Source: an uncultured delta proteobacterium
Lineage (GTDB): Bacteria > Desulfobacterota > Desulfobacteria > Desulfobacterales > UBA2156
Reading direction: 5' to 3'
Assembly: GCA_963736855.1 (NCBI GenBank)
Contig: CAVTQK010000019.1
Location: 1 to 64,000, forward strand
DNA length: 64,000 nt
Part shown: piece by piece, positions 42,560 through 64,000 of the stretch
Position numbering within the stretch: the stretch's first letter is position 1
Layout: the number at the start of each line of letters is the position of its first letter
Translations under genes and position numbers: made by a program
Notes under the pieces: model-generated
Told to the model about the DNA's origin: nothing
Databases searched by the model: none
What the model saw: the letters and a program-made list of their open reading frames with translations, nothing else

Positions 42560-42860
42560 ATGGATAAAATGTTAAGAAGCCGCTTTTTTCCAAGCGGATT
42601 AAGCGGAAAAATAAATTGTATATTTCCATCATCTGCGACCCAAGAAATGGGGGCATGTATTTCTTATGAGAAACAAATTTTGACTATCGAAAAGAGGATG
42701 AGCTGTCAATCGGAATTAAATCAGGAAATGACCGTTAATTTGGCGGATTTGGGCATAGATCATCGTTTCATCTTTCATCGTTTTTTTGCAAAGAAGAATC
42801 CATGGGATAAACCGGGTCGGCGACGTAATCCTTGAACTCGACCACCCGCATTCGTCCTTA
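42560..42860 (-). mobile_element. IS91-family remnant: extreme transposase C-terminus plus conserved non-coding end
   Basis: CCATGGGATAAACCGGGTCGGCGACGTAATCCT (42800-42832) recurs at about 63188-63220 with one mismatch. Encodes RMRVVEF|DYVADPVYPMD. Blocks ACCCAAGAAATGG and CTGTCAA are shared with 54590-54810 and 62950-63170. Confidence 0.75.
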
Positions 42861-43260
42861 GTTCTTGAGCCGCCGGAACCTGCGTAAGTGACTTTTGCGG
42901 AAAGAACCACTGCCAGATAAGATCCTTGGCTGCCGAGGGATATTTCTTCTCCAGCCGGTCGTCAAGAAACACTCCTGAATATTCCGCCGCAAGATCTTGG
43001 TCATGAATGTATTTCACCACCTCAAGTTGGGAAGCCAGTTCCGGCACAATCGTCTTAGGCAGGGGAACCGTGCGGTCTTTTTTCCCTTTTCCGTGGACAG
43101 TGAGTATTCCGGCTTCGAAGTTAAAATCCTTGACGCGCAGTTGCAGGCATTCAAACAACCTGAGCCACTTTTTATAGTCCGCACGCTGTATCGGTGCAAC
43201 GGCTCGTTTTTCGAGAATGGCGTCAAACCTCTTTAAAATGGGGACCGGAACCGGCAACAT
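42860..43260 (-). pseudogene. intI: Integron integrase, internally deleted and C-terminally truncated
   Basis: LRLFECLQLRVKDF, GKGKKDR.VPLP and the integron-specific insert DL..GVFL..LEKKYPSA....WQWFFP. No HxxRH box or catalytic Tyr. Confidence 0.88.
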
Positions 43261-43420
43261 CGGTATTGAACAGCGAACCCCCTAAGAATACATATTAGAT
43301 ATTGAACAACTCAATTAAAATAATAATATCAGATAGATTTGTCAATAATATTTTAATTGAACATTGACAATCTTGGAACTTTTTGATATTGAAGGAAAAC
43401 TATTCAATATATTGTTAGGC
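43261..43420 (+). promoter_or_regulatory. attI site and divergent Pint/Pc promoter region
   Basis: AT-rich; repeated ATTGAA(C) boxes; inverted repeat ATATTGAA..TTCAATAT; core GTTAGGC (43414-43420); TTGACA on both strands (43364+, 43345-). Confidence 0.7.
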
Positions 43421-43575
43421 TTCCAAGAAGGGTCCTTCTCAGCATCAAAGCAGGTACATTTTCCTGTGCGCTGGAGCGGTCACTCTGGATTGTTGAATTA
43501 CACCGCAAGAATCGGAGTGTTCCTCCGCTCAAACAAAACTATATTGAGTGCACTCTAATAAATGGAGGAGTGCAC

Positions 43576-44580
43576 ATGAAAGCCATCAATAGATCAATGG
43601 GACTGGTCGAGTGGTTGCTTCTAATCACCTTGTCAATTCTCTGGGGCGGGTCATTTTTCTTTATCGGTATTGCGGTTCATGCCCTGCCACATTTCACCAT
43701 CGTTGCGCTACGCGTCGGGCTTGCAGCGGTTGCGCTAAATGTGGTTGTTCTGGCTGTGGAGCTGAAAATGCCCAGGAGTTGGCAGCTTTGGGCGGCCTTT
43801 TTGAGCATGGGTCTTCTCAACAACATAATTCCCTTTACCCTGATCGTCTGGGCGCAGAGGCACATTGCCAGCGGTCTGGCATCCATCCTCAATGCCACAA
43901 CGCCGCTTTTCACTGTTATCGTCGCACATTTTCTAACTAGTGACGAGAAGATGACCAGAGCGCGTTTCGCCGGGGTAGTCATCGGCTTCGCGGGCGTTGT
44001 TCTTATGATCGGGCCGGAAGCCCTGGAGAGTTTTGGCGCCAACACCTTTGCCCAGCTCGCTGTTCTCGGTGCTGCGGTCTCTTACGCCTTCGCCGGGGTC
44101 TTTGGCCGCCGCTTTCGGAACCTGGGCTCTCAACCCTTGGTCACTGCAACTGGTCAGGTAACGGCCTCCACTCTCGTGCTTATCCCTTTGGCCATGGTGG
44201 TGGAGCGACCTTGGAACCTTCCAATGCCTGAGCTGGAGGCATGGGGTGCTATTGCAGGGCTCGCCTTGTTTTCTACCGCGCTCGCCTACATACTCTACTT
44301 CCGCATCCTTGCTACGGCGGGCGCCAGCAATGTGCTGCTCGTAACATTTCTTATCCCGATCAGCGCTATTCTGCTCGGCAGCACAATCCTCGGTGAGAAG
44401 TTGGAGCTGAAACACTTTATCGGTATGGGACTCATCGGTCTCGGGCTCGCCGCTATTGACGGGCGGTCGCTTGGTTTCTTGTGCCGCAGCCTGATTGAGA
44501 ATCCTGCCCCGTTACGAATTGCGCCCAAGCAATCATTGGCCCCCGACTCGGCGGAGGTGCAAGAGGACTATTCAATTTGA
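43576..44580 (+). CDS. DMT/EamA family transporter (cassette 1, gene 1)
   Basis: LWGGSF, NNIIPF, SGLASILNATTP and STALAY; GGAGGAG RBS. Confidence 0.92.
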   Translation: MKAINRSMGLVEWLLLITLSILWGGSFFFIGIAVHALPHFTIVALRVGLAAVALNVVVLAVELKMPRSWQLWAAFLSMGLLNNIIPFTLIVWAQRHIASGLASILNATTPLFTVIVAHFLTSDEKMTRARFAGVVIGFAGVVLMIGPEALESFGANTFAQLAVLGAAVSYAFAGVFGRRFRNLGSQPLVTATGQVTASTLVLIPLAMVVERPWNLPMPELEAWGAIAGLALFSTALAYILYFRILATAGASNVLLVTFLIPISAILLGSTILGEKLELKHFIGMGLIGLGLAAIDGRSLGFLCRSLIENPAPLRIAPKQSLAPDSAEVQEDYSI

Positions 44581-44645
44581 GACCAGCGAGCGCCTCTTGT
44601 GCCAGAGCGATCTCTGAACCGCTATAATCGAGATTGGGGGCTTCA

Positions 44646-45752
44646 ATGATGACAAAAAGATGTACGTTCACCGATGATGAAAGGAGATGGAACGCAGTCG
44701 TCAAGCGTGATCGTGCTGCCGAGGGTACTTTTTACTATGCTGTGAGGACGACGGGCGTGTTTTGTCGGCCTGGGTGCTCATCTCGTTTACCCATTCGTGT
44801 GAACGTCGAGTTCTTCGATACATGCAGGGAAGCCGAACTCGCGGGTTATCGCCCCTGCAAGCGATGTAAGCCCGGCGTCTCGTCACCACATGAGCGACTG
44901 GAGGAGGCTATCGTCCAAGCTTGTCGCCGCATCGAGCAGGCGGAGGAAACCCCGAAGCTGGAGGAACTCGCCGAGGAGGCCGGTCTGAGTCCATGGCATT
45001 TTCATCGTCTCTTCAACAAGATCGTCGGGGTTACGCCTAAACAATACGCCGCTACACGAAGAGCGCAGCGTTTCCGCGATAGCCTAAAGACCAGTCTGTC
45101 CGTCACGGATGCCATATATGAGTCAGGTTTCGGATCCAACAGCCGCGCCTACGAGAAAGCCGGCGATCGTCTGGCCATGCCCCCGTCAATCTATAGGAAA
45201 GGGGCAGCGGGGCTTACGATTCGCTATGGCGTCGCTCCGTGTTTCCTCGGTTGGGTTATTGTGGCAACTACTGATCGCGGCATCTGTGCCATTGAGCTTG
45301 GAGACGATCCGAAGGTTCTGCCCGCCAAGGTTCAAAGAAGCTTCCCTAATGCGCTTCTCGAAGAGGCTGGGCCGGACTTCTCTGATTTAATTCAGAAAAT
45401 CATCGGTTTTATTGAAGCTCCGGGCAAAGGAATCGAGCTTCCCCTCGATATTCTGGGTACCGCTTTCCAGCAGCGCGTTTGGCATGCTCTTCGTGAAGTG
45501 CCATCCGGTGTTACCGTTAGCTATACCCAAATTGCTGATCGCATTGGCAGTCCTGGAGCAGTGCGTGCCGTATCTCGAGCCTGTGCTGCGAACAAGCTCG
45601 CCGTAGCGGTGCCTTGCCACCGCGTGGTGCGCAGCGATGGGAGCTTGAGCGGGTACCGATGGGGTATTGAGCGGAAACGTACACTGCTTCTCCGAGAAAG
45701 CGGTAGGAGCGAAAATCTCCATGAGCAGAACGAAAAGACCGACGAAGCCTAA
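44646..45752 (+). CDS. ada: Bifunctional Ada transcriptional regulator/O6-methylguanine-DNA methyltransferase (cassette 1, gene 2)
   Basis: FCRPGC and RPCKRC Zn site, AraC HTH, VPCHRVV and GYRWG. Confidence 0.95.
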   Translation: MMTKRCTFTDDERRWNAVVKRDRAAEGTFYYAVRTTGVFCRPGCSSRLPIRVNVEFFDTCREAELAGYRPCKRCKPGVSSPHERLEEAIVQACRRIEQAEETPKLEELAEEAGLSPWHFHRLFNKIVGVTPKQYAATRRAQRFRDSLKTSLSVTDAIYESGFGSNSRAYEKAGDRLAMPPSIYRKGAAGLTIRYGVAPCFLGWVIVATTDRGICAIELGDDPKVLPAKVQRSFPNALLEEAGPDFSDLIQKIIGFIEAPGKGIELPLDILGTAFQQRVWHALREVPSGVTVSYTQIADRIGSPGAVRAVSRACAANKLAVAVPCHRVVRSDGSLSGYRWGIERKRTLLLRESGRSENLHEQNEKTDEA

Positions 45753-45852
45753 CCAAGCCAATGAACCCGTCGAGCAACCACGGGGCAAGTTGTCCGGTCT
45801 TGTCCGAAAGTCCTTGGCCGTGGTTGCTCGCGGGTTATCGGCACCGTTATGC
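45747..45852 (+). other. attC site (106 bp)
   Basis: GCCTAAC (complement of GTTAGGC at attI)...AACCCG.CGAGCAACCACGG / CCGTGGTTGCTCG.CGGGTT...GTTATGC. Confidence 0.92.
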
Positions 45853-45868
45853 ATACCTTGCAAGCATC

Positions 45869-45897
45869 TTGACATCTATAATGGACCCCATTATAAT
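45869..45897 (+). promoter_or_regulatory. Consensus sigma70 promoter with overlapping palindromic operator (higBA)
   Basis: TTGACA-N17-TATAAT; inverted repeat TATAATGG-acc-CCATTATA (45877-45895). Confidence 0.88.
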
Positions 45898-45904
45898 ATA
45901 ACCC

Positions 45905-46199
45905 ATGATAAAAACTTTTAAGTCTACTGGTACTGAAGATATTTTTGATGGTGTGGCATCTCAAGCTGCTCGAAGATGCTGTCCACAATCCATTTGGTCG
46001 GTTGCTCGCCGAAAGTTGGATCAAATAAACCGAGTTCGAGAGATTAATGAACTTAAAGTGCCGCCAGGTAATCGACTGGAACATTTGAAAGGCGACCGTG
46101 CAGAATCAATACAGTATCCGCGTTAATCAACAATACAGAATTTGTTTTACATGGGAGGAAAGCCATGCCTACGAGATCGAAATCACAGATTACCACTGA
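45905..46199 (+). CDS. higB: HigB (RelE-family) toxin, one extra base near 46105
   Basis: MIKTFK...ARRKLDQI...LKVPPGNRLEHLKGDR, then QYSIRVNQQYRICFTW...EITDYH* in the shifted frame. Confidence 0.88.
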
Positions 46200-46527
46200 T
46201 GTTGGACGGCGACTGCCTCGAAATCGTCCCCCGACACATCCTGGGGAAATGCTTTTCGAGGAATTTGTCAAACCGCTTGACCTTACACAAACAGAACTTG
46301 CTCGCCGTCTGGGCGTTTCTTACCCTCGTCTGAACGAAATTATTAAAGGCAGGCGTTCGGTAACTCCGGATACTGCATTGCGGCTGTCCCGTGTTTTGGG
46401 TATGTCTGCAGATTTTTGGTTGGGCTTGCAACAGGATTGGGATCTTTGGCATGCAATGAATAGCCCTGAAGCAAAACAGATTAATCGCTTGAAGCCGATT
46501 CCCAGAGATCAACATTCTTTTGCATAA
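46165..46527 (+). CDS. higA: HigA antitoxin (XRE HTH)
   Basis: THPGEML.EEF, TQ.ELA..LGVS, TALRL and FWLGLQ; GGAGG RBS. Confidence 0.93.
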   Translation: MPTRSKSQITTDVGRRLPRNRPPTHPGEMLFEEFVKPLDLTQTELARRLGVSYPRLNEIIKGRRSVTPDTALRLSRVLGMSADFWLGLQQDWDLWHAMNSPEAKQINRLKPIPRDQHSFA

Positions 46528-46583
46528 CCAAAGCATTAAGAGCGACGGCAAAAAGCCGCCGCGCCTTATGCTTAGCGTTGGGC
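46522..46583 (+). other. attC site (62 bp)
   Basis: GCATAAC (complement of GTTATGC)-caaagcattaagagcgacggc-aaaaa-gccgccgcgccttatgcttagc-GTTGGGC. Confidence 0.93.
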
Positions 46584-46765
46584 CTGAGGAAACAAGACAT
46601 ATTGCCACTGCATGGGATCACGGAATACGGGCTTGTTTTCATATCGGGCAAGAACGATTAAAAGGGTTTAGCTTTCGTTCTTAAAGCTATCCCCTTGGAT
46701 CTGCGCTAACATTCAACACTCCTGTTATCGGCGTAGAGCAGGAAAAGATAAAGGCGAACAACCTA

Positions 46766-47587
46766 ATGGGAAATATCAAATCGCGGCTGAAAATATACCT
46801 CATCATATTCTTTGCGGTCATCGTCTTAGGTACGATAGGCATGATGACCATTGAGAAAAAGTCTCTTATCGATTCCTTTTATTTTGTCATCGTTACCATG
46901 GCAACGGTAGGATACGGCGATATCCATCCGGTAACTAATTTTGGAAAAATCTTTACCCTTTTTATCATCGTCACCGGGGTGGGCACGTTTCTCGGCGTCA
47001 TAGCCAATTTTACAGAGATCATGCTGGAAAAACGGGAGATGGAAAGCCGCATGGAAAAGCTCAACATGATTATCGGTGTCTTTTACAGCGAGGTCGGTCT
47101 GGAACTTCTCTCCCGGTTCGCCCGTTACGACCTCAATTTCGACGCCATCAGGAGCAGTTTAATCATAACCGGAACCTGGAAAGACAAGGAGTTTATTGCC
47201 GCCAGTAAGGAGTCTGTGAAGCACGACTTCGGCGTTGATGTCTCTCAGGTAGATTTCCTTGAACTAAAGGGCTTTCTCACAATAAAACGAGACTTTCTCC
47301 TGAGGCTCTTAGAAAACCCTGTGCTCATGGAGCATCAGTCCTTTACCGATCTGTTACGCGCCGTCTTTCATCTCACCGAAGAGTTAGCTTACCGCAATTC
47401 TTTCGAAGATGTGCCGAAAACCGACGCAAATCATCTTGCAGGAGATATCAAACGGAGCTACCACCTGATTGTGGCAGAATGGATTATTTATATGAAGTAT
47501 CTGAAAAATAACTATCCTTTTCTCTTCTCCCTAGCTGTGCGCACTAACCCCTTCAACAAAGAGGCTTCAGTCGTCGTCACGGTGTAG
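46766..47587 (+). CDS. Two-TM potassium channel family protein (cassette 3)
   Basis: TMATVGYGD selectivity filter between two TM helices; soluble C-terminal domain. Confidence 0.92.
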   Translation: MGNIKSRLKIYLIIFFAVIVLGTIGMMTIEKKSLIDSFYFVIVTMATVGYGDIHPVTNFGKIFTLFIIVTGVGTFLGVIANFTEIMLEKREMESRMEKLNMIIGVFYSEVGLELLSRFARYDLNFDAIRSSLIITGTWKDKEFIAASKESVKHDFGVDVSQVDFLELKGFLTIKRDFLLRLLENPVLMEHQSFTDLLRAVFHLTEELAYRNSFEDVPKTDANHLAGDIKRSYHLIVAEWIIYMKYLKNNYPFLFSLAVRTNPFNKEASVVVTV

Positions 47588-47624
47588 TAAGAGAATCGGG
47601 GAGTTCTGGGGACATGATACAGAA

Positions 47625-47672
47625 TTCCAACAAGAAAATGCACCAGATGAACTGGTGATTTTCACGTTAGGG
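47625..47672 (+). other. Very short attC site (48 bp)
   Basis: TTCCAAC-aaGAAAATgCACCAG-atgaa-CTGGTGATTTTC-ac-GTTAGGG, with an extrahelical G. Confidence 0.85.
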
Positions 47673-47707
47673 TTCAAAACTGAACCGTCACGAGGGCAGG
47701 CAATTCG

Positions 47708-48724
47708 ATGGGTCTTTCCAGCTTTTGGCGGTTGACGAGACACACAACATCAGGTGAAGCAACGAAGCGATATTGGCTTTTTTATGCAGGCCCGGAGAAT
47801 TACTTGTTTGAGGGCGGTGTCCGCGACCTCCCGCAAGAAGCCTTCTGGAGTTGCGAGTCTGAAACAAAACGGGGGGATCTTATTCTCGTTTACCGGAAGT
47901 CGATGAATCACCTCTCCGTCGACCATCTTGTCCGTGAGTTTGGCATCCTAGAAAACGTTGCGAAGCGAGTCAAGAACGCCGGGATTGGAAAGGATTTCCC
48001 CGTTATTTGGGAGGTCACATCCGACGCGAAGAGAAAGCTTCTTTGGCACTGGCCATACGGCTGCGACACGAAAGAGCTTCAACGAATTGATCCCCCGCTA
48101 AGACTCCAAGAGCTGAAGTCCGAGCTTCGCCTTAGGAAGTGGGAAGGTTTGAGTTGGAATCTCCAAGCGAGAGGGCATGTTGTACTTGAAATCCCCAAGT
48201 TTGCATGGGATGTGATTACCAACATGATAGAGGACACGAGGTCACGGCAGCCACTTATTCAGCAAGAGACCTCAAACTCGACTACGCCTCGCAGCGGAAG
48301 CATGGATAGAAAACCGTGGGCGGCTGACACGAAACCTGCAACGGCGGTAAAGGAGGAAACTATGGAGCCTTCGGAAGCGTTGCGAATAATCCGATCTCTG
48401 GCTGATGGCGTTGACCCGCACACTGGAGAGATTTTTCCCGATGACAGCCCATATCAACATCCACAGGTCCTGCGCGCGCTGTCCCTGGCTGTGAGGGCGA
48501 TGGAGCGTTTTGAGGATAGACAACGGCGCGAGAAACTTTTACCTGCCAACGCCGGAAAACCGTGGAACGATGCCGAAGACAAAGTCCTATGTGAAGGGTT
48601 TGATGCGGGCTTACCGGTTAGCGAGTTGGCGCAGAAGCATCGGCGGACGGAAGGTGCTATTCAGTCTCGGCTGGAGAAACTGGGCAAGGTTCCCTCACGT
48701 TTTCGATCAGGATCATCACCCTAA
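47708..48724 (+). CDS. Cassette 4: EVE/PUA-like N-terminal domain plus C-terminal Myb/HTH-like domain (internal start at 48362)
   Basis: RYWLF...FWSC...KRGDLILVYR; AAGGAGG-ATG at 48362, then LADGVDPHTGE...NAGKPW...ED...LAQKHRRTEGAIQSRL. The stop lies within CCCTAAC. Confidence 0.65.
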   Translation: MGLSSFWRLTRHTTSGEATKRYWLFYAGPENYLFEGGVRDLPQEAFWSCESETKRGDLILVYRKSMNHLSVDHLVREFGILENVAKRVKNAGIGKDFPVIWEVTSDAKRKLLWHWPYGCDTKELQRIDPPLRLQELKSELRLRKWEGLSWNLQARGHVVLEIPKFAWDVITNMIEDTRSRQPLIQQETSNSTTPRSGSMDRKPWAADTKPATAVKEETMEPSEALRIIRSLADGVDPHTGEIFPDDSPYQHPQVLRALSLAVRAMERFEDRQRREKLLPANAGKPWNDAEDKVLCEGFDAGLPVSELAQKHRRTEGAIQSRLEKLGKVPSRFRSGSSP

Positions 48725-48774
48725 CCTATAAGGATTGGCACGACCTGAAAGGTCGTTTTCAATCCATTGTTCAA
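48719..48774. other. attC-like hairpin ending the array (spacing fits the minus strand better)
   Basis: CCCTAAC-ctataaGGATTG-gcACGACCTgaaAGGTCGTttt-CAATCCatt-GTTCAAG. Confidence 0.7.
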
Positions 48775-49325
48775 GAAGCCCGGGAAGGGCGCACTATTTA
48801 TTAGGGGTAATGCTTGAAAGGTATCCGGGAGGGTTAAGCCGGGGTATGGTGCTGCCGGCCAAAATCGGAGCCGGTCGCTAAAATCGAACCGTTTGTCTTT
48901 CAGAATCAGCTAAAAACCGACCGTTCTTTGACAAGTAGAACCGGGCAGCGCATCGTTTTGACAGCCGCGGGGCGCAGTTATCCTGTGCCGTCGGATTGTT
49001 GAGCAGCAGGTTGATGAATTAAAATAGCCTAAAATCCTCCTTTTATTCGGGTCTTGCCGGAACCATCATAAACGGCAGCATCGAATAGAGGTATATCAGC
49101 TTGCCGCCGCAATGCGGGCATATTGGCGGCGGGTCGAGGGCAAGGGAGAAAGGTCTTTCCGGTCGTTTCAGGTCCATTAAGTTCAGGTGTTTGAGTATTT
49201 TTCTATTCACATCTGGATCTTCGATAAATGCGACCACCCGCATTCATCCTTGACATTTGGGACAGATCAGCGGATTGACTTCATAAACCTTCCGAATCAG
49301 GCGTGACCGATTTTTCCGAAACGCC
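48775..49325 (-). mobile_element. Fused IS91-family transposase C-terminal remnants plus non-coding end
   Basis: 49150-49325 encodes RLIRKVYEVNPLICPKCQG*MRVVAFIEDPDV.RKILKHLNL.DL..PERP, homologous to 54850-54940. It is joined to a different CPHCGG Zn-ribbon tail (49043-49145). Confidence 0.7.
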
Positions 49326-49388
49326 CTAATGCCTATGCATTTAGCTCCTAATGATCGAAGCTGATTCGCCCTGAGATACAAGCTGATC

Positions 49389-49880: not shown

Positions 49881-50600
49881 TCAGGAAGTACTGGAAGCGG
49901 CTTGGCCCAGGTAGGAGTTGATCACCGCCGGGTCCGACATCAGTTGGCGGGCATCGCCTTGTAAAACGATTTTGCCGTTTTCCATCACATAGGCCCGCGA
50001 AGACACAGCAATGGCCTGGCGGGCGTTTTGCTCGACCAGCAGGATGGTTTGGCCAGCGGCTTGCAGCTCGGCGATGATTTCAAAAATCAGCTTGACCACC
50101 AGGGGTGCCAGGCCCAGCGAAGGCTCGTCGAGTAACAACAACTTGGGCTTGGCCATCAGCCCCCGGGCAATGGCCAGCATTTGCTGTTCACCGCCTGAAA
50201 GTCCGCCGGCCAGCGCATTGCGGCGCTCGGCCAGAATCGGAAAGCGGCTCTCCATCAGCGCGATGCTGGCTGCGATCTCGCCGGCCGGCCGGCGGTAGCC
50301 ACCCAACTCCAGGTTCTCACGCACCGTCATGCCGGCCAGCATCAGGCGGCCTTCGGGAATTTGCACAATGCCGGCGGCCACGCGCTGGTGTGAGCGCATG
50401 CGGGTAATGTCCCGGCCCTGAAAAAAAATGCGCCCCCGGCTGGCAGCCACTACACCGCTGATGGCATTGAGTGTGGTGGTCTTGCCCGCACCGTTGGGCC
50501 CCACCAGGGAAACCACCGTGCCTTCTTCAACGCTGAAAGCAATCTCCCGTACCGCCTCGATGGGACCATAGGAAACTGTCAGCTCGGCAACTTCAAGCAT
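49881..50600 (-). CDS. livF: Branched-chain amino acid ABC transporter ATPase
   Basis: GPNGAGKTT, LSGGEQQMLAI, DEPSLGLAP and VEQN. Confidence 0.92.
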   Translation of the reverse strand: MLEVAELTVSYGPIEAVREIAFSVEEGTVVSLVGPNGAGKTTTLNAISGVVAASRGRIFFQGRDITRMRSHQRVAAGIVQIPEGRLMLAGMTVRENLELGGYRRPAGEIAASIALMESRFPILAERRNALAGGLSGGEQQMLAIARGLMAKPKLLLLDEPSLGLAPLVVKLIFEIIAELQAAGQTILLVEQNARQAIAVSSRAYVMENGKIVLQGDARQLMSDPAVINSYLGQAASSTS

Positions 50601-52241: not shown

Positions 52242-52244
52242 GGC

Positions 52245-55000: not shown

Positions 55001-55051
55001 GGTTCTATCAAACCTCGTCAGGTGAGAACCTAAGAAGATAAAAGAAACTCC

Positions 55052-55630
55052 TTATGCCTCAATCCACGTGGTCTTTTCCTGAAAGCTTTTTCTGGGAACA
55101 GCTCCGGGTACGCCGATAGGCTTTCCCATGCACACCAACCCGATGGGAACCTTTTTCTCTTCTATCCCGAGAATCTTACGCATGGCCTTCTTGTCGAAAA
55201 AGGTGAACCACAACCCGCCAAGGCCAAGGGCATGGCCGGCAAGGAGCATATTCTGGATGGCTGCACCGCAGGCAAGTTGGTATCCTACACTTCCTTCCTC
55301 CATAAACATATCCACCCCGGTTCCTTTGGGATCACCGATCACCGCGATGATGAGGGGCACCGTCTTCAGAAAATCCATGCTGTATTTTCCCAGCCATTTC
55401 CACCCGCTCTTTTCCAGGGCCCATTCCTTGCACCTGACTGCCTCGGAATGAATCTTCTCCTTCATACTCGAGTCCGTAACGACCATGAACTCCCAGGGCT
55501 GGGAATTGAGTGGAGACGGCGCCCATGTCGCCGCCTCCAAAATTTTTTCTACCACCTCCCGCGCCACTGCATCTTTCAGGAAAGCCCGACAACTCCTTCG
55601 CCCCCGAATGGCTTCAAACAGGTCCATCAT
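55052..55630 (-). CDS. Nitroreductase family protein
   Basis: RRSCRAF, WAPS..NSQPWEF and AIQNMLLA.HALGLG. Confidence 0.92.
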   Translation of the reverse strand: MMDLFEAIRGRRSCRAFLKDAVAREVVEKILEAATWAPSPLNSQPWEFMVVTDSSMKEKIHSEAVRCKEWALEKSGWKWLGKYSMDFLKTVPLIIAVIGDPKGTGVDMFMEEGSVGYQLACGAAIQNMLLAGHALGLGGLWFTFFDKKAMRKILGIEEKKVPIGLVCMGKPIGVPGAVPRKSFQEKTTWIEA

Positions 55631-55691
55631 TTTCTCCTTTCAAAAACGGCTGTTCCACTGCTTTTATAAAAACGCGGGGTTCAGGCAATAA

Positions 55692-57359
55692 TTAACGGAT
55701 ACTTTTCACACCCTTCCCCATGCGTCTGCGCTCTTCATCCCGGATTTCTCTCCGCAAAAGCTTCCCCACCTTGGACTTGGGAAGCATATCTCTGAATTCA
55801 ATATATCCGGGCACCTTGTAAGGTGCCAGCCTTTCCCGGCACCATTTGATAAGTTCTGAGCCGCCAACCCCCCGGGCATCCTCTTTTAAAACCACGATAG
55901 CTTTGATCCGCTCTCCCACCCGATCGTCCTGGATCCCCACCACACAAGCTCCTATCACGGTAGGATGGTCCTGGAGGACCGCCTCCACCTCCGAGGCCGA
56001 AACCCGATAAGCCTTGTGCTTGATGATGTCGGCTGAACGCTCCATATAAACCAATTCACCATCCGAATCCTGGCTCATGAAATCCCCCATCCGGTAGAAA
56101 ACCTTCTGCCCGATTTGAACATAAGATCTGGCGGTTTCCTCTGGTTTATTCCAATATTCCTTGAGGGTATACTGGGAGGTGACCAGGAGCTCGCCGCTTT
56201 CGCCGGGTGCCACCGGAGAAAGGGTTACCGGATCCGCCACCATGCACTCCCGACTCTTGAGAGGAAGCCCGATGGTCCCGGGTTTGGGTTCCTTCCCGAT
56301 CCGACTATAGGTGACGTGTCCTGCCTCCGTGGATCCATAAACCTGATAGATGGGCACCCCGAATTTCTCCTTCCACCGCTTGTAGATCTCAAAAGGAAGG
56401 ACATCCCCCCCGCAGATACAATAGGTCAGGGAACTCAGTTTGTACCGGTCGAGCCGCTCGTTTTCGAGGATCATTCTGTAAAGGGCCGGGACCCCTAGCA
56501 TCCATCGGACCCGGTATCTCTGGATGGTCTCCAGTATGGCGTCCACCTGGGGAACCGGCATGAGCAGGGTGGTGTTTCCGCGGTTCAGTCCGATGGCCAT
56601 GAATAAACCCAGCGCCATGATGTGGAAAAGGGGGTTAATGGCAATATATACATCTTCTCCTTCTTTTAGGTACTCCCCGGCCACATCTTCGGCAATATCG
56701 TTCACATAAGAGGTCATGCCGATATGGTTGCCGGGCACCCCTTTGGGAAACCCCGTGGTGCCGCCGGTGTAAAGGATATAGGCAAGATCTTTCCAGGGAT
56801 CCAGCGACGGCCCCCGTTTCATGGGCGCGTGATTGAGCAGGGATCGAAAAGTATGGACCCGATCATGGCGGGTTACCTTGCCATGGGGAATCTTGTCCAA
56901 GAGCGTACCCAGGGCCCGTTTCCACTGCGGAAGCAGATCCGCAAGATTTGTGACGATGGCTCGCTTGAGACCTGTGCTAGCAAAGGCATCTTCCACATAA
57001 CAGAAATTGGTGTCCAGGCAGATAATGGTCTCCGCCCCTGCATCGTTGGCCATATACCGGATTTCATGTGAGGTATAAATCGGGGAAACCGGGACGATCA
57101 CGGCCCCGATCTTCTGTATGGCCAAAAAGGCGATGAGCCACTGGATGCAGTTGGAGATGTAGACCATGACACGGTCTCCCTTTTTAACCCCCATATCCAG
57201 AAGAGCTCCCCCAAACCGCTCGCTCAGATTTCTGAGCCGGCTATAGGTGAAGGACTCCCCCAGACAGATCACCGCCTTATGATTGGGGTAGCGTTCCGTC
57301 ATCCGGTCAAAACGGGTGAAGGTCAGTTCCTTTTCCCATGCATTTCCTTCCGAGCCCAT
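55692..57359 (-). CDS. AMP-forming acyl/aryl-CoA ligase
   Basis: YTGGTTGFPKG, PLFH, YGSTE, MGD and PKSKVGKLLRR. Confidence 0.92.
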   Translation of the reverse strand: MGSEGNAWEKELTFTRFDRMTERYPNHKAVICLGESFTYSRLRNLSERFGGALLDMGVKKGDRVMVYISNCIQWLIAFLAIQKIGAVIVPVSPIYTSHEIRYMANDAGAETIICLDTNFCYVEDAFASTGLKRAIVTNLADLLPQWKRALGTLLDKIPHGKVTRHDRVHTFRSLLNHAPMKRGPSLDPWKDLAYILYTGGTTGFPKGVPGNHIGMTSYVNDIAEDVAGEYLKEGEDVYIAINPLFHIMALGLFMAIGLNRGNTTLLMPVPQVDAILETIQRYRVRWMLGVPALYRMILENERLDRYKLSSLTYCICGGDVLPFEIYKRWKEKFGVPIYQVYGSTEAGHVTYSRIGKEPKPGTIGLPLKSRECMVADPVTLSPVAPGESGELLVTSQYTLKEYWNKPEETARSYVQIGQKVFYRMGDFMSQDSDGELVYMERSADIIKHKAYRVSASEVEAVLQDHPTVIGACVVGIQDDRVGERIKAIVVLKEDARGVGGSELIKWCRERLAPYKVPGYIEFRDMLPKSKVGKLLRREIRDEERRRMGKGVKSIR

Positions 57360-57419
57360 ATTCCGCTTTTGTCTCCCGTGACCCAAAATCTAATTTTTTT
57401 TGCAGCGTTGGCTTTGGGA

Positions 57420-58169
57420 TCAGTTTACGCCAAAATAGGCTGCGCGCACATCCGGATTGTCTAGAAGTTCCCCCCGGCTCCCTTCGAGTACAGCCGCCCC
57501 GTTCTCCAGGATGAATGCATAATCCACAATGGGTAGGACCGGGCGTGCGTATTGTTCGGTTACAATGAGGGAAATCTTTCTTTGATCCCGAATTACCCTC
57601 GTGGAACGAACCAGGGTTGCCTGCATGAGGGGACTCAGTCCCATGAGCGGTTCGTCCAGCAGAAGGAGCTTGGGTTGGGCCATGAGGGCCCTCCCGATAG
57701 CCAGCATTTGCTGTTCGCCGCCGCTTAAAAACCCTCCTACCCTCTTCTTGAGTGTTATTAGAGCCGGAAAGAGCGTGAACACATATTCGAGGGTGGCTTT
57801 TGCCTGGGAAGGGGTGGCCAGGTAAGCGCCGATCTTGAGGTTTTCCATCACACTGCTTTCTTTGAAGATACGACGTCTTTCCGGGCACAGAATAATCCCC
57901 TCCCTGGCCCTGTGGCTGGGTTTGATTCCCCCCATATCCCGGCCCTGGTACCGGATTTCCCCCAGGATGGTAATCCGTTCACCCCCGGCCATGGCCTCTT
58001 TTTTCCGGATATCTTCCATGATGCCGGAAAGGGTATACATGAGGGTGGATTTACCCGCGCTGTTGGCCCCAAACACCCCTACAATCTCCTTTTCCTTGCA
58101 CCGTACGTGGACATTGTTGAGGGCGAGCATGTTTTCGTAAAAAACCATCAGGCCGGTCGCCTCAAGCAT
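57420..58169 (-). CDS. ABC transporter ATPase (LivF-like)
   Basis: GANSAGKST, LSGGEQQMLAI and DEP. Confidence 0.9.
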   Translation of the reverse strand: MLEATGLMVFYENMLALNNVHVRCKEKEIVGVFGANSAGKSTLMYTLSGIMEDIRKKEAMAGGERITILGEIRYQGRDMGGIKPSHRAREGIILCPERRRIFKESSVMENLKIGAYLATPSQAKATLEYVFTLFPALITLKKRVGGFLSGGEQQMLAIGRALMAQPKLLLLDEPLMGLSPLMQATLVRSTRVIRDQRKISLIVTEQYARPVLPIVDYAFILENGAAVLEGSRGELLDNPDVRAAYFGVN

Positions 58170-58950
58170 AGTGCATGACCTCCTCCACCTCTTCTGATCC
58201 GAAATAAGCCTCTTTGACCTGCTGGTTGGCCATGACCTCTTCGGGCGTCCCTTCGGTCAGTTTCACCCCAAAGTTGAGGACCATGATCCGGTTAGCCACC
58301 TGAAAAAGTTCTCTCAGCCGGTGCTCGATCATGACGAGGGTGATACCATCCATCTGAAGCCTTTCCATGAGGGGAACCATGCTGGCGATCTCGCTCATGC
58401 TCAGGCCGGAAAAGACCTCGTCGCACAGGATGACCTCCGGCTTCAGCGCCAGACATCGTGCCAGCTCTAAACGTTTTAAATATCCGGTGGGAAGGGTGGA
58501 GGCCATTTTATAGGGAACAAAGGAATCTCTTTCAAAACCGATTTCCTCGAGAATATCGATGCTGACGGTCTTCCGGTCACCCAGTTTGCCTCCCCCCCTC
58601 CAACCCCCGGTCCTCTTGGCGCGGGGAGCAAAAAGCGGAATGACCAGGTTCTTATAGGCAGGCAGGCTGAAATAAGGCCGCATGATCTGAAAGGTGCGGG
58701 TGAGACCCATATCCGCAATCTTGTGGGCCGGCTTATTGCTGATCTTTTTCCCTTTGAACAGTACTTCTCCGGAGGACATGCGGATGAAACCGGTAAGACA
58801 ATTGATGAGGGTGGTTTTCCCGGATCCGTTTGGACCGATAATTCCCAGGACCTCTCCCCGATTCACATGGAAGCTGACCCGGTTCAGGGCCACGATGCCC
58901 CCAAAATGCTTGCTGATGTCGCGTGCCTGAAGGATCGGTTCCTGGCTCAT
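58162..58950 (-). CDS. ABC transporter ATPase (LivG-like)
   Basis: GPNGSGKTT, RTFQ and LELARCLA; start MSQEP. Confidence 0.9.
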   Translation of the reverse strand: MSQEPILQARDISKHFGGIVALNRVSFHVNRGEVLGIIGPNGSGKTTLINCLTGFIRMSSGEVLFKGKKISNKPAHKIADMGLTRTFQIMRPYFSLPAYKNLVIPLFAPRAKRTGGWRGGGKLGDRKTVSIDILEEIGFERDSFVPYKMASTLPTGYLKRLELARCLALKPEVILCDEVFSGLSMSEIASMVPLMERLQMDGITLVMIEHRLRELFQVANRIMVLNFGVKLTEGTPEEVMANQQVKEAYFGSEEVEEVMHYA

Positions 58951-59960
58951 ACCTGCACCCACCTCTGAAACTGGTGATATTTCCTTTCTCCGTAGACCAT
59001 GAGGCCCTCGCTTCGAAATATGATGAACCCGACAAGGATCACGGAGTAAAAGACGATTCTCAATGTGCCAAACTCGCGCAGCAACTCCGAGATGGGCACT
59101 AAAATCAGACAGCCCAGGACCGGCCCCACCAGGGTCCCGCCCCCGCCGATGACTGTGGCCGCAATGGGCAGAATGGAAAAGTCCAGGGCAAACAGGGAAA
59201 TCCCCGCCCACATATAGATGTGTACCAGGCATGCCCCGCCCAGGCAGCCCATGGCCGCACCCAGGAAAACCGCAATCGCCTTGTAATAAGAAATGTTCAT
59301 GCCCGATGCCCTTACGGCCTGATCATTATCCTTTACGGCTCGGAAGACCAGTCCCATATCCGTGTTAACCAGTCTGCGCATCCCAAAAAGAAAAAGCAGG
59401 AGCGTACCGATAACCACATACTGTTCCGCCCAGGGATTGGCAAAACTGTCCACGCCCATGATTCCGTCCGTGCCTCCAAGGATGTCCATAGCCTCGATGA
59501 TCCGTGCCAGAACCAGGGGATACATGAGGGTCACGATGGCGAAATATACGCCCCGGAGAGGGAGGCAGGGTAACAGGAAGAGCGTGCAAATGGCCGCACC
59601 GGCCAGGGTGGCTATGGGAATCGTCAGCAGGGGGGGCAACCCGAAAGAGCTGTTGAGAATCGCAGTCAGATATCCTCCCACCCCGACGAAAAAAGCGCCG
59701 CCCAGGGAAACGAGGCCGACATAGTGGGCCAAAAAATCAAAACTGACGGCCAGAAGGGCATAGATACACACGATGGTGACCACCCTCTGCCAGTACATAC
59801 CGGGCATGACGAGCGGCAGGATCAGCATCCCCACGATCAAAATCAGCCTGGGCAAGGTTAAATAAGACAGTTCACGCCAGGACATGAGGGCATACAGACC
59901 TTCGGCCCGTATCTTGATACCCCGGTCCAGCCTTTCTCTGCGGCTCTGTTCAGAACTCAC
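58947..59960 (-). CDS. ABC transporter permease (LivM-like)
   Basis: GLVSLG, LRGVYFAIVTL and GGGGTLVGP. Confidence 0.88.
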   Translation of the reverse strand: MSSEQSRRERLDRGIKIRAEGLYALMSWRELSYLTLPRLILIVGMLILPLVMPGMYWQRVVTIVCIYALLAVSFDFLAHYVGLVSLGGAFFVGVGGYLTAILNSSFGLPPLLTIPIATLAGAAICTLFLLPCLPLRGVYFAIVTLMYPLVLARIIEAMDILGGTDGIMGVDSFANPWAEQYVVIGTLLLFLFGMRRLVNTDMGLVFRAVKDNDQAVRASGMNISYYKAIAVFLGAAMGCLGGACLVHIYMWAGISLFALDFSILPIAATVIGGGGTLVGPVLGCLILVPISELLREFGTLRIVFYSVILVGFIIFRSEGLMVYGERKYHQFQRWVQV

Positions 59961-59964
59961 GGGA

Positions 59965-60831
59965 CTACACCCTTTCTTCCAGTTGCTTTTGCATGCCAAA
60001 AATCCCGGAGGGTTTCAGGATGAGCGTGAAGATGATGGCCAGGAGCGCCACCACCATTTGATAATGACTCCCCAGATAGACCACGGTCAGCATCTGTGCA
60101 AAACCGATGAGAAAAGAGGCCAGAACCGCGCCCGCCCAGCTCCCCAGACCTCCCACGATACAGACGGCAATTGCCAGGATCAGGACGTTATACCCCGCTT
60201 CCACCACCACGTTGCCCAGGGGAAGAAGCAGTATCCCGGCAAAGCCCGCCAGAATGGCGCCGATGACCATGGCCACCACCGCCATCCGATCCGAATCAAT
60301 CCCCAGCATGAGGGCGGCCCTTTCATCCTGGGCCATCCCCCTGAGTGCCAGGCCGATCCGGGTATAATGGGTAAAAAGATAGAGCCCTGCCACGATAGCC
60401 GCCCCAACCCCCACCATAATTATCCGCTGGTAATCCACAGGTACATCCTGGACGGTAATGCATCCCTCAATAAATACGGGAAGGGTATAGCTCATGCCCT
60501 TGAACCCCCCCCAGCGCAATCCTTCCAGGATGGCAATTCCCACAGCATAGGAGGCGATGATTTCCGATATTGCCATGCCCCGGACCCGAATAAGCACGAA
60601 CTGGTACAACATGGCCCCGATCACTCCAATAATTGCCAACGTAATCAGGATGCTCCACACATAACCGATATGGAGGGTGCGCAGAAAGGTCCAGGTGATA
60701 AACCCGCTCAGGACATAAATGGATCCGTGAGCAAAGTTGGGGATCCGGCTGATGCCATACACCAAAGCAAAACCCAAGGCCATGAGGGCAAGGGCAACAC
60801 TGTTGATAGTGCCATAAATTAAAATGTCCAT
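59965..60831 (-). CDS. ABC transporter permease (LivH-like)
   Basis: ALGFALVYG...NFAHG, GLALRGMAQD and VGGLGS. Confidence 0.9.
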   Translation of the reverse strand: MDILIYGTINSVALALMALGFALVYGISRIPNFAHGSIYVLSGFITWTFLRTLHIGYVWSILITLAIIGVIGAMLYQFVLIRVRGMAISEIIASYAVGIAILEGLRWGGFKGMSYTLPVFIEGCITVQDVPVDYQRIIMVGVGAAIVAGLYLFTHYTRIGLALRGMAQDERAALMLGIDSDRMAVVAMVIGAILAGFAGILLLPLGNVVVEAGYNVLILAIAVCIVGGLGSWAGAVLASFLIGFAQMLTVVYLGSHYQMVVALLAIIFTLILKPSGIFGMQKQLEERV

Positions 60832-60880
60832 GATGGGTTACCAAATCCAGACAGCGACAGTTTTTTCGAAGTTTTCTCTT

Positions 60881-60953
60881 GTAGGTGCGGTTTCAACCGC
60901 ACCTGACCCTATTTGCCGCCCCCAACCGACCGAGCGGAGCGAAGCCGCCCTAC
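60881..60953. repeat. REP-like GTAG hairpin pair
   Basis: GTAG-GTGCGGTT-tc-AACCGCAC and an inverted ...GAAGCCGCC-CTAC, in the gap after the binding-protein gene. Confidence 0.55.
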
Positions 60954-61027
60954 GTGCGCGGTTGACTCGAATGGCCTTGATGGGCAAAGTGCGAGCGGAG
61001 CCCAAAAGGCCTTGAAGGGACGGGAAA

Positions 61028-62299
61028 CTATTTCTTCATCCAGGGCGGCAATTGAATCGTCCCTTGGGCAATAGACTTGGGAAAGACGACGACGCGTTTT
61101 TCCGCCTGCCACTGGAAGATGCTGCCCACGGCCCCCTCTTGGGGATTCAAGCTGGGAATAACCTGATGTCCCTTGGGTGAAAAACGGACCAATCCGTAGG
61201 GCCCCATCATATTCGTTTGCTCCAGGGCGGTCACAACAGCGTCAGCATCAAGGGTCCCGGCCTTTTCAATAGCGTCCTTGAGGACATAGACCGAAGTATA
61301 GCTGCTGGAACAACCGAGCCCCTCCGGCTCAATTTTCCACCGATCCTTATAGGCGTTGTAGAACTTCATAGTCCAGGGAGTGGCATTGCTGGGGGCATTT
61401 CCAGCGTTCACGACATTGGCGAGGCAAAATTCTCCCTTCCCTTCCGTAGCCTTCCAGAAGCCGGGTTGTTCCGCGGCACACAGGGTCGAACCGAAAGGCA
61501 GGGCCGGAACCTTCATGTCATACCATTGTTTCAGCAGGATGGAGCTTTCCGGCATATCCATCCACAGACTCATTACCTGGGATTCCGTCTTTTTAGCCTT
61601 GATAAGACCCATAGAAAAATCTGTTGTCCCGGTTGGATAGATCTCGGTGTCCGTCACGGTCCAGCCGCTCTTTGCTGCCAGTTCCCCTAGTATCTGACCC
61701 GCGGCCCGGGCGTGGGCCACGTCCTGAACCATGATGATGAGCTTATTGAAACCATGTGCCTGTTTGATTTCCTCGAGGCAGGTCAGAACTTCCTTGACCA
61801 GCCACTTGGCCTCACCATGGATGCGGAAGCAGTATTTATATTTATCATACTGCTCTTCCACGAGGGCGTGATATTTGGGCGTGAGCACACCCGTAGTCAG
61901 TATGGAGACCTTCTTGTGCTTGGATAAAAGGGGCATTGCCGCCAAGGCGGCCTCTGAACGGACCGGTCCACCCAGAATGAAGTTGGCCTTCTTTTCCAGG
62001 ATCAGCTTTTCCACGGCCAGAAGGGCTTCACTCACCGGCACCCCCGGCTCCAGATCCCTTGTGTCCAGAACTTCAACCTGGAACGGCCGCATGGTACCAC
62101 CCACCTTGACGCCTCCTTTGGCATTGATCTCTTCCACGGCCAGTCGGATGGCTCTTTCCGCATCCCATCCGTAAAGATAGGCAATAGAAAGGGGACAACC
62201 CAGGATAATGGGGTCGGCGGCCAAAACCACCTTCCCCGGCAGAACCATCAAACTGACTGCCAACAGGACCATCATGAATCTCAACGCTTTTTTCTTCAT
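61028..62299 (-). CDS. ABC transporter substrate-binding protein (Liv-type, probably for organic or aromatic acids)
   Basis: Signal peptide; AVEEINAKGG, GGPVRSEAALA and YKYCFR; in an operon with a CoA ligase. Confidence 0.88.
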   Translation of the reverse strand: MKKKALRFMMVLLAVSLMVLPGKVVLAADPIILGCPLSIAYLYGWDAERAIRLAVEEINAKGGVKVGGTMRPFQVEVLDTRDLEPGVPVSEALLAVEKLILEKKANFILGGPVRSEAALAAMPLLSKHKKVSILTTGVLTPKYHALVEEQYDKYKYCFRIHGEAKWLVKEVLTCLEEIKQAHGFNKLIIMVQDVAHARAAGQILGELAAKSGWTVTDTEIYPTGTTDFSMGLIKAKKTESQVMSLWMDMPESSILLKQWYDMKVPALPFGSTLCAAEQPGFWKATEGKGEFCLANVVNAGNAPSNATPWTMKFYNAYKDRWKIEPEGLGCSSSYTSVYVLKDAIEKAGTLDADAVVTALEQTNMMGPYGLVRFSPKGHQVIPSLNPQEGAVGSIFQWQAEKRVVVFPKSIAQGTIQLPPWMKK

Positions 62300-62410
62300 T
62301 TACTGTCCTCCTTTTTTCGACTCGGGTTTATCATTCGATAAAACACAGGTGCTTTAGGCCATGCTGATCTTTACCTGGGAAGTTGGTCCGGTAGTTGTCT
62401 TTTCTTTACG

Positions 62411-62626
62411 TCAGGACTCACCTCTATGGCAAAATCCATTTAAAAGACCATCTCTTTCACCTGGGGAAGCTTGAGGTTCTTGAATGCCATGTTCTTTGAT
62501 TTTTCTCCTCAGCAACGAAGGAGGAATTTGAAGAAGCTGGGCACTTTTTTCGACGTTCCAGGAAGTCTTATTAAGCACTTTCAGGAGATGCTCCCTCTCT
62601 CTTGCCCTGAGAGTTTCAATTTTCAT
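62411..62626 (-). CDS. Stand-alone Fis-type HTH protein
   Basis: L...EREHLLKVL.KT.WN.EKSAQLLQI....L.RKIKEHGI. Confidence 0.75.
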   Translation of the reverse strand: MKIETLRAREREHLLKVLNKTSWNVEKSAQLLQIPPSLLRRKIKEHGIQEPQASPGERDGLLNGFCHRGES

Positions 62627-62949
62627 TTCCCCTGCTCCTAGCAAGTGGCATAGCCAAAAATCCAGCAAGGATTATGCCGAGATCTCTCTGGGTTGAAAAA
62701 ATTGTATTTGTAAGAAATAACCTTACGAATTCATTTGAAAAGAACCGTGGTAGATTTAATGCGGGCAAACAGAGTAAATCCGATATGTATAGAAAATTTT
62801 TTTCAAGGCCGGAAAACTTCCTTCACTTCTATTTTCAGCCCATGAAAAAATTTCATACCGGCGGATGAATTCCGTATTTGCGAATCTTGGCTCTAAGGGT
62901 AGGAGGAGAAATTCCCAGGATCTTGTCTGTCTTTGTACGATTCATTGAT

Positions 62950-64000
62950 AAATAATTGATAAAAAGTCACTTTTTTTCTTACGGATCAAGCGCGAGGATG
63001 AATTGTGTTTTACCATTGTCTGTACCCCAAGATATGGGAACATACAGTTGTCGTGGCGGATGTATTTTTGATTAACAAAAGGCGGGTGCGCTGTCAAACG
63101 GATTTTCATCGGCAAAAGGCCATTATCTCGGCCGATTGGGGCATAGTCCAACGGAGCAACGCTGACCGGCTTTTCAGGAGTAAGCATCCATGGGATAAAC
63201 CGGGTCAGCGACGTAATCCTCTGTGGAAGGTGCAACGGAGTCATCATATGTTGGTGTCTCAATCAGGGGCGGGGCATGGGCGACGGGTCTTTCTTCTGGA
63301 ACACAGGTCATTCGTTCCTGGGAGAACGATGCCCGGACCTGCCTGCCGCGGCGCTATGCTTTACGGCGCAGGCAGGTGATGTACCGGGCCAGGTTTTCCA
63401 TGGACGTTTTATCCGGGGAGGATTCTTTTGCCGCAATAGGTATTGAATCCGGTATGCCGCCATTGATCCAGAAGGGCGATCATGTCTTGGGTGATTTTGC
63501 CTTTTTCCAGAAGCATCTTGAGCACATGGTGTCGGAAGAGGCGTTCCAGAGTCCGGCAATCGATTCGATGCGCCACGGTGAGCAGGCCGCTTTCGTGGAA
63601 ACAGCCGTCGGAAATCAGGACATGCAGATGGGGATTAAACCCGAGAAAATCGCCGAAGGTTTGAATGGCGACGGCCGCACCGGGAACTGCTGTTGAATCC
63701 CGTGAGGCAAAACTGAAATAGATCCTTCAGACTTTCCCATCCGCAGCGGCTGAGTTCGGATAACAGCTTGCGGTCAAACAGAAAATAGCGCCTGAGGATC
63801 TTGGGGATACTCATCACCAGATGGCGGTGCGGGACGGCTTTGATGACATTGCCGCATAGCCATTCCCCGAACTCCACAACGCGCTTCTGATGACACGAAG
63901 GACAAAAGTGCCGCCTTTTGCAGGAAAATGCCAAAAGATATTCATGACCGCACTCTCCACATCGAACCCGGGCAAACCCGTTATGCAACACTCCGCAGTC
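62950..64000 (-). mobile_element. IS91-family element with degenerate transposase (63174..>64000)
   Basis: Zn-binding CG..HNGFARVRC..C..EYLLAFSCKRRHFCPSC; HUH motif NPHLHVLISDG; LARYI. Carries frameshifts, a 39-bp insertion and an internal deletion. Confidence 0.92.
63338..63376. repeat. 39-bp palindromic insertion
   Basis: CCTGCCTGC-cgcggcgctatgctttacggc-GCAGGCAGG interrupts an ATC codon of the transposase. Confidence 0.8.

Follow-up and report, generated by a model that had tools for sequence, protein, structure and literature searches.

We examined the first 64,000 nucleotides (positions 1-64000) of contig C19 (CAVTQK010000019.1) from G000, the genome of an uncultured delta proteobacterium of the Desulfobacterales (3.91 Mb in 25 contigs). 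We refer to this stretch as the window. Its right-hand part carries four minus-strand pieces of IS91-type transposases (at 42.8, 49.1-49.3, 54.8-55.0, and 63.2-64.2 kb), three non-coding ends of such an element, an integron block, and the genes that the ends face (Table 1). The ends are ISCR-like oriIS ends that probably persist as outward promoters, and the short repeats stacked behind them are probably scars of aborted rolling-circle starts. Below, C numbers are contigs of G000, G001 upward are genomes of relatives, L numbers are fetched loci or contigs, and X numbers are sequencing runs.

Co-oriented ends of an ISCR-like element

A preliminary description of the window had reported four remnants of one transposase, three of them with a homologous non-coding end of about 220 bp that lies upstream of a gene or operon and carries an outward-facing TTGACA. 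All four pieces are present. Remnants A, C, and D do come from one transposase (family 1), but B is a hybrid with a second IS91 family. The three ends (A, C, and D) exist and are about 195-200 bp long. Their termini lie about 85, 200, and 290 bp upstream of the genes for U32 and the liv binding protein and of the Fis-HTH ORF, respectively, and each end has an exact TTGACA facing outward. The -10 boxes had been called weak, which holds for ends A and D but not for end C, whose promoter is an 11/12 match. The description missed the stacked terminal repeats that follow ends C and D.

A profile built from these three ends matched G000 at 64 positions and the reversed genome at none, so the matches are not due to chance. 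Most copies (53 of 64) extend to the 3' end of the profile. A transposase piece lies at most 1.5 kb upstream of 15 of the 64 ends (tblastn), none of them intact; neither G000 nor any of 12 family genomes has a match over the whole protein. A unique platform at this site is not supported: ends are found genome-wide and similar clusters occur elsewhere. Such clusters of ends and transposase scraps lie at C15:383-401 kb, C21:698-701 kb, and C21:511-520 kb, and two ends are back to back at C21:698277.

As judged from sequence, the window ends are oriIS ends of an ISCR-like, single-tyrosine clade of the IS91 family. That the element is ISCR-like had been proposed before, and it is borne out by the tyrosine motif, the family model, and the terminus of the ori region. 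For family comparisons we used P0001, an intact relative of the window transposase (458 amino acids), to which remnant D is 75% identical across amino acids 1-148. P0001 passes the IS91-family model NF033538 (163.6 bits; cut-off 125) and is below the curated cut-off of NF052416, the model for ISCR clade Ia (140.9 versus 925 bits). The transposase alignment contains the H-x-H motif and PF14319 matches remnant D, so both the HUH and the zinc-binding domains are represented. The tyrosine motif reads NLARY in P0001, LCRY in ISCR1, and YIGRY in a Y2-type protein of G000 (our assignment of the catalytic tyrosine within the motif is presumed). P0001 shares its single-tyrosine motif with ISCR1, ISVsa3, and ISPps1 and lacks the YxxxY of canonical IS91 and IS1294; IS91 is classed as Y2 and ISCR as Y1 (PMC10288648).

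We fetched 78 loci related to the family-1 transposase, mostly from metagenome-assembled genomes (MAGs) of Syntrophales, with flanks of up to 4 kb, many of them shorter. The ori region of related loci extends about 235-250 nt beyond the stop codon, much like the 232 bp of ISCR1 (PMC6218425), and ends with a TTGACA-17-TATACT promoter, then AAAAG-AAGTTCTTAT, and then four bases. (TTGAC-17-TATACT is present in 76 of 98 Smithella-type ends, a set that had been selected for TATACT.) As expected for the IS91 family, oriIS lies downstream of tnpA, ends in TTCYTAT plus four nucleotides, and has no terminal inverted repeats. No target consensus was found beyond the terminus in related-genome and metagenome junctions. 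Across 45 upstream regions there is no conserved terIS or common left end, and similarity fades at variable points. Nor is there a target-site duplication: left edges in G000 and in the plasmid pIAE1 (see below) do not repeat the right-hand bases. No Rfam family matched at gathering score within window positions 42000-64000, and folding the ends, without a shuffle control, gave only short palindromes and no common large structure.

The clade resembles ISCR1, ISCR2/ISVsa3, and ISCR8/ISPps1 in its single-tyrosine motif, a shared C-terminal domain, the TTCYTAT terminus with four further bases, the absence of a target consensus, an outward promoter, and a palindromic operator in the transposase promoter. 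However, P0001 is only 27-30% identical to ISCR1 and its relatives, and unlike ISCR1, the clade has no tie to class 1 integrons or resistance genes, is present in tens of copies per chromosome, and has terminal stacks. Its operator, which we take to be LexA-like, is GAAC-N4-GTTC (33 of 45 upstream regions of related loci). The ISCR operator is CTGT-N8-ACAG, and LexA control through a palindromic operator has been shown for ISCR1, ISCR2, and ISCR8 (PMC13393415). At loci L021-L094, a longer palindrome, TAGAACG-NN-CGTTCTA, lies between the -35 and -10 boxes (33/45) and is a possible SOS operator; this strict pattern has no copy in G000.

With IS91, IS801, and IS1294 the clade shares the HUH and zinc-binding domains, a passing NF033538 score, oriIS downstream of tnpA, a AAATTCCTAT-type terminal motif, and one-ended transposition. 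It differs from them in having one tyrosine instead of YxxxY, no conserved terIS, no orf121, and no target tetranucleotide beyond the terminus. Viral contigs contained no members of the family, and two motif scans there gave mostly unrelated matches and no stacks. On viral contigs L333-L377 we did see about 20 junctions, often several per contig, at which AAAGCAAATTCCTAT-AGCA/G is followed by a conserved flank of about 28 nt; the end is IS91-like and its repeat context is fixed. A TTCAATCAA tail had been noted in Dehalococcoidia without being linked to IS91; a transposase of the clade is present in the Dehalococcoidia MAG L048.

Stacked copies of the terminus

End C reads TTCTTAT-CAAT and is followed by CAAT, TTATCAAT, ATCAAT, and TCAAT. 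In G000, we called a stack if an exact copy of at least four of the end's own last bases followed immediately. By this definition, 16 of 53 ends carry suffix copies (15 sites, since C5 and C14 hold one duplicated segment), compared with 0.43-0.46 under shifted and shuffled nulls and 0.6% of random positions. Stacks are also present in 14 of 29 related genome loci. (The terminus pattern recovered these 29 from 44 loci; among the 15 unmatched, L022, L030, and L056 are stacked by eye.) They follow 25 of 125 metagenome junctions, which were found with a search pattern that stopped short of the terminus (null 2.2), and, by eye, 5 of 10 ends of family relatives. On pIAE1 (NZ_CP058410.1), a finished plasmid of the isolate Trichlorobacter lovleyi IAE, 3 of 11 identical copies of the end are stacked. 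The pooled count is 64 of 223 junctions, against a null of 3.6.

The units of a stack are 3-134 nt long (modal length 5 nt). They start freely and share a 3' end four bases past TTCYTAT, and the register peaks at +4, with 64 junctions versus 35 and 33 one base to either side. Most multi-unit stacks (26/33) mix unit lengths; L214 has 27 units and L215 has a unit of 134 nt. TAAT-like forms parse as a 1-nt plus a 3-nt unit. Nearly all five-nt units (49/53) start without microhomology. The units copy the last bases of their own locus, be these CACC, CACT, CAAA, CATT, CAAG, or TCCT, and at 98 termini other than CAAT, the first unit ends in the locus's own tetramer in 15 cases and in CAAT in 3. Six loci have a unit of 36-40 nt whose start precedes the -10 box by 0-4 nt, and the remaining long units measure 13-28 nt. 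The stack at end C is unchanged in run X4, and the orthologous junction in G005 has none. In run X2, one low-depth contig (depth 4.2) has one extra 5-nt unit in this stack. The finished plasmid and the independent assembly argue against an assembly artefact.

We asked where the element itself stops. ISCR1 ends in TTCCTAT-ACCC at 8 of 8 distinct junctions, and a copy of IS91 ends in TTCCTAT-CGAT. In an interim reading, the four terminal bases were an IS91-type target, because identical ends differ in their last four bases and IS91 uses a target tetranucleotide (PMC13181058). The ISCR1 and IS91 termini and a codon test led us to drop this reading. The test used 16 protein alignments, of which 4 were clear, 2 were weak in the same direction, and 10 were uninformative. 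At the four clear junctions, which lie in conserved coding motifs (GDVGFG-K of Mfd, IDE of FtsK, GLKP of RibB as compared with a 93% paralogue, and TGES of a P-type ATPase; all but RibB are presumptive names taken from the motifs), the terminal four bases do not fit the native codons. The four bases therefore come with the element, and together with the ISCR1 and IS91 termini this makes the units pure suffixes that end at the homologous nick position. We saw no tetramer duplication at the left edges of truncated copies in pIAE1 or G000.

In keyword searches of the literature, judged by titles and abstract beginnings, we found no description of stacked oriIS termini. The closest precedent that we found is Replitron-1, with its fuzzy ends and variable target duplications (PMC10288648). 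This Chlamydomonas element is likewise a Y1 HUH transposon, and one of its ends carries short, irregular extra sequence, but it is eukaryotic and of unrelated origin, and its extras are parental flank plus target duplication rather than stacks of its own terminus.

One-ended capture, the bracketed operons, and the integron block

The 11 identical ends of pIAE1 are co-oriented and 3-15 kb apart, and its transposase is 57% identical to P0001. These ends share 458 to 3418 bp of upstream DNA in nested sets, a geometry that matches the window. In G000, a 1004-bp module is present at two sites with 96% identity, stops exactly at the terminus, and contains no transposase; its 144-amino-acid passenger protein is rich in alanine and proline and has no Pfam match. 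Parts of the module lie at both sites in G005. The nested lengths and the module point to one-ended mobilisation of DNA from the ter side, as expected for ISCR elements. Empty sites were not found in plasmids for three pIAE1 flanks (no other copy of a fourth flank was found), nor in G001-G005 for the module. The pIAE1 region at 162-252 kb (L273, L277-L297) holds two transposase families, with four further co-oriented ends beside the 11 identical ones. Its captured upstream DNA includes a toxin-antitoxin (TA) pair and an alpha/beta hydrolase, and several left edges start with TGAC, TGAA, or TAAC.

Table 1. Features of the window and the non-autonomous module of G000.
Feature	Position	Strand	Evidence or remark
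U32 peptidase-family gene faced by end A	41453..42484	-	PF01136
Possible degenerate 8-nt terminal repeat after end A	42560..42567	-	sequence; did not parse as a unit and was left out of the stack count
oriIS end A	42568..42775	-	TTGACA 42709-42704; CCCA..TGGG palindrome; terminus TTCTTAA-CATT
Family-1 transposase, C-terminal scraps	42776..42859	-	joined to B-left (49284) in related run X4
Integron integrase (intI) pseudogene	42860..43260	-	TIGR02249, 100 bits (cut-off 265)
attI, core GTTAGGC (at 43414)	43400..43420	+	G005 copy diverges directly past GTT
Cassette array: EamA, Ada, higBA, K+ channel, EVE-like	43570..48724	+	
Three attC-like hairpins	45746-45858, 46521-46583, 47626-47675		
Second IS91 family (tyrosine-recombinase type), C-terminus and end	48721..49147	-	inserted in R'' box of last attC
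Remnant B, family-1 transposase piece, about amino acids 352-415	49136..49330	-	sequence comparison
liv (branched-chain ABC) operon faced by end C	49881..54400	-	62% GC; common to G005 only
Terminal stack of end C	54573..54595	-	four suffix copies: 4, 8, 6, 5 nt
oriIS end C	54596..54800	-	TTGACA-16-GATAAT at 54737-54710; terminus TTCTTAT-CAAT
Remnant C, transposase amino acids 75-102 fused to C-terminal piece	54837..55004	-	
Fis-HTH/ABC/CoA-ligase/nitroreductase operon	55052..62668	-	extra or relocated copy
Terminal stack of end D	62944..62954	-	one 11-nt suffix copy, 1 mismatch
oriIS end D	62955..63150	-	TTGACA at 63097-63092
Remnant D, frameshifted transposase amino acids 1-293 (start C19:64168) and C-terminal scraps	63151..64000	-	PF14319
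1004-bp non-autonomous module (L258, L259)	C6:155002-156005, C9:156193-157197		terminator, 144-aa protein, ori end

The bracketed operons are foreign or extra copies. The fab-gdh block of the window is vertically inherited. After gdh, the six relatives examined (G001-G004, G006, and G009) carry other genes and no insertion sequence, which agrees with the expectation that the operons are not vertically syntenic. The U32 gene has its best match in a relative at 67%, in another context. For the liv operon, the only match at 95% is in G005, where the site and the C junction are shared and the cargo in between differs. The ABC/CoA-ligase operon occurs in G005 (89%) and in G006, G008, and G010 (about 70%). 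In G005 it adjoins a TRAP operon. The G000 orthologue of this TRAP operon, on C15 (93%), has no more than 311 bp of the ABC/CoA-ligase operon beside it; the copy in the window, which is fused to remnant C, is therefore additional or has been relocated. As the operons at the gdh flank are patchy or foreign, we consider the site an accretion hotspot. Because rolling-circle capture takes DNA from the ter side, a gene faced by an end is a neighbour of the target and not cargo. Capture by an ISCR-like element, as proposed for the window, is thus visible in pIAE1 and the G000 module, but for the window operons it is only inferred. Capture between two sequential oriIS has been mentioned for ISCR28 (PMC12772301). 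It had also been proposed that ends are retained while the transposases erode. Truncation need not mean erosion, as pIAE1 has a recent ori-anchored copy of 458 bp.

The integron of the window is real but dead. It resembles a sedentary integron in its IntI-type sequence, attI, attC-like hairpins, and a TA cassette, but the integrase is broken: intI has an internal deletion of about 550 bp between 9-nt repeats and lacks its C-terminus. It is 92-93% identical to an open-frame intI of G005. The contact between intI and a transposase remnant, at 42860/42859, is present as described, although the gene is a pseudogene. In run X4, a contig (depth 20) joins 42859 straight to 49284, exactly at this junction. 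The simplest reading is that A and B-left form a single remnant, which a 6.4-kb integron block entered in this lineage. In the reverse order, X4 would have lost the block, but the deletion would then have to end at precisely the same point. None of the 78 related loci has intI or a family-2 recombinase in its fetched flanks, and with the junction absent from X4, the idea of a conserved intI-IS91 tandem finds no support: the contact is a strain-level insertion junction and the link to the integron is incidental.

The same X4 contig skips window positions 42540-42789, so end A may be replaced or absent there. The second-family end of the window sits in the AAC of the last attC; this piece is 85-87% identical to C9:683356-683763 and C24:203442-203866, and the second-family end on C9 also lies directly after an attC-like AAC. 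The K+ channel cassette gene (46721-47597) has a 96% copy at C14:61947-62823, preceded there by a different hairpin-like sequence. The gene higB (45905-46130) carries a perfect TTGACA-17-TATAAT promoter of its own. Near 46100, relatives in three runs are one base shorter, and the window copy may be frameshifted. Four more integron integrases in G000 exceed the TIGR02249 cut-off (C21:744805, C24:200981, C22:4704, and C13:157249).

Proposed aborted starts, probable outward promoters, and rival explanations

In HUH chemistry, the protein-bound 5' end is fixed and a 3'-OH attacks. We propose that the single-tyrosine transposase would nick the bottom strand at the terminus and stay bound to the 5' end, that a host polymerase would extend the flank's 3'-OH by a few (m) bases into the element, and that the new 3'-OH would then reseal onto the bound 5' end, leaving the round incomplete. 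The next replication would fix a tandem copy of the last m bases, and repeated rounds would pile up units of unequal length that all finish at the same base. Nicking, extending, and resealing predict the shared end, the free start, the lack of microhomology, and the use of the locus's own bases. Longer units have lengths near 20-28 or 36-40 nt, reaching back to the predicted transcription start and the -10 box. Rounds that were completed from one end would move the ori with variable upstream DNA and build co-oriented chains. We infer that the window arose as one of these chains and that recombination through the remnants then rearranged it, the intI junction being the product of one such event.

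Could the stacks arise without the transposase? If they were microsatellites made by polymerase slippage and seeded by the AT-rich end, it would be natural that TCAAT units often repeat, that the sole read-level difference between strains (the extra unit in X2) adjoins an existing TCAAT, and that stack length differs between G000 and G005, neither of which has an intact transposase among its matches. However, slippage does not predict that all units end in one register, that most multi-unit stacks mix lengths and units of 13-134 nt occur, or that first 5-nt units lack microhomology, and only 0.6% of random positions look stacked. We consider this origin very improbable; slippage may edit an existing stack but does not explain its first unit. 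It is also improbable, if less so, that the units come from further ori copies whose insertion into the junction was aborted, the four bases being an IS91-type target that a staggered cut duplicated, much like the variable target duplications of Replitron-1. In its favour, two different tetramers occur on identical ends, matching the two targets of IS91 (PMC13181058, Table 2); in a few units the final tetramer is not the resident one (C13, L173); and variable duplications of the target site have been reported for one HUH transposon (PMC10288648). But the four bases misfit native codons at four coding junctions, belong to the element in ISCR1 and IS91 by homology, and are not duplicated at left edges in pIAE1 or G000.

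The orientation of the ends bears on their putative role as outward promoters. Using our own ORF calls and dropping three duplicate or secondary copies (n = 50), we found that 43 of 50 ends face a co-oriented gene. This orientation bias, which had been suspected from the window, exceeds nulls from random intergenic positions (0.557; p = 4.9e-6) and from local strand bias (0.529; p = 7.7e-7), and the gene behind the end is co-oriented in just 30 of 49 cases. Replication-strand bias was rejected as the cause, as the strand of the end agrees with GC skew in 20 of 50. The bias could instead reflect landing and survival, through open promoter DNA and loss of antisense insertions, with the ends as neutral relics. 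The weak -10 boxes would fit this, as would distances to the next gene that spread from 14 to about 1000 bp. But no hexamer is kept better than TTGACA: it is exact in 37 of 39 copies, at a median pairwise identity of 67%, while the transposition terminus TTCTTAT is kept in 17 of 39, so we consider neutral relics somewhat unlikely. It seems likely from the sequences that ends persist as outward promoters, as known for ISCR1 (PMC6218425), and that gene-facing ends were kept or antisense ones lost. The preliminary description went further and saw a dedicated IS91-integron platform that captured uptake operons, with its ends selected to drive them. The patchy or foreign operons and the conserved TTGACA fit that picture, as does the clustering of ends (21 neighbouring pairs at 0.3-15 kb versus 12.9 expected, p = 0.007; 17 of 21 co-oriented), and pIAE1 has the same chain geometry with real capture. 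Nevertheless, such a platform is unlikely, given 0 of 78 related loci with intI or a tyrosine recombinase nearby, an integron block that splits one remnant and that X4 lacks at this site, 64 ends across the genome, and no unit bounded by the window's own ends elsewhere.

Several observations weigh against aborted starts and promoter use. Identical ends can differ in their last four bases (TCCT in seven and TGAC in four pIAE1 copies; CAAC in L026 versus CAAA in L120), which fits a fixed terminus only if imprecise joining recruits flank bases, and this would also give rise to lineages with new last bases. The three units that end in CAAT after other termini do not copy their own locus, and the excess of 1-nt units is limited to T and A. 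Neither ISCR1 (0 of 8 junctions; Fisher p = 0.07) nor the second pIAE1 family (0 of 4) has stacks, so the trait may be clade-limited. As no intact transposase was found in G000 or the 12 family genomes, growth of the stack at end C needs an enzyme acting in trans or slippage. Seven of 50 ends face an opposed gene, and in G000 35 of 40 ends match TATAAT at three or fewer of six positions at 16-18 nt spacing.

The terminal stutter is the new part of these results; the promoter side, with dozens of gene-facing ends whose -35 box is the best conserved, would extend the P-OUT effect of ISCR1 to genome scale. ISCR elements spread resistance genes. According to a 2018 account (PMC6218425), ISCR transposition had yet to be demonstrated by experiment. 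From sequence alone, the stacks pinpoint where the nick falls and in which direction synthesis runs, and deep sequencing of a junction gives a read-out of activity. With its 11 identical, apparently recent copies and visible one-ended capture, pIAE1, whose transposase is WP_224963446.1, is a ready, non-pathogenic test system. More tentatively, with the balance slightly against it, this widespread clade may write a telomere-like tail, in which each aborted start adds the last 1-134 bases, even at ends that lack a transposase and are served in trans, and stack length records nicking. Because long units stop at the start site and the -10 box, RNA polymerase parked at the promoter would then gate initiation. 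If so, the stacks would mark, in the genome sequence itself, the nick site and strand polarity of ISCR-type elements.

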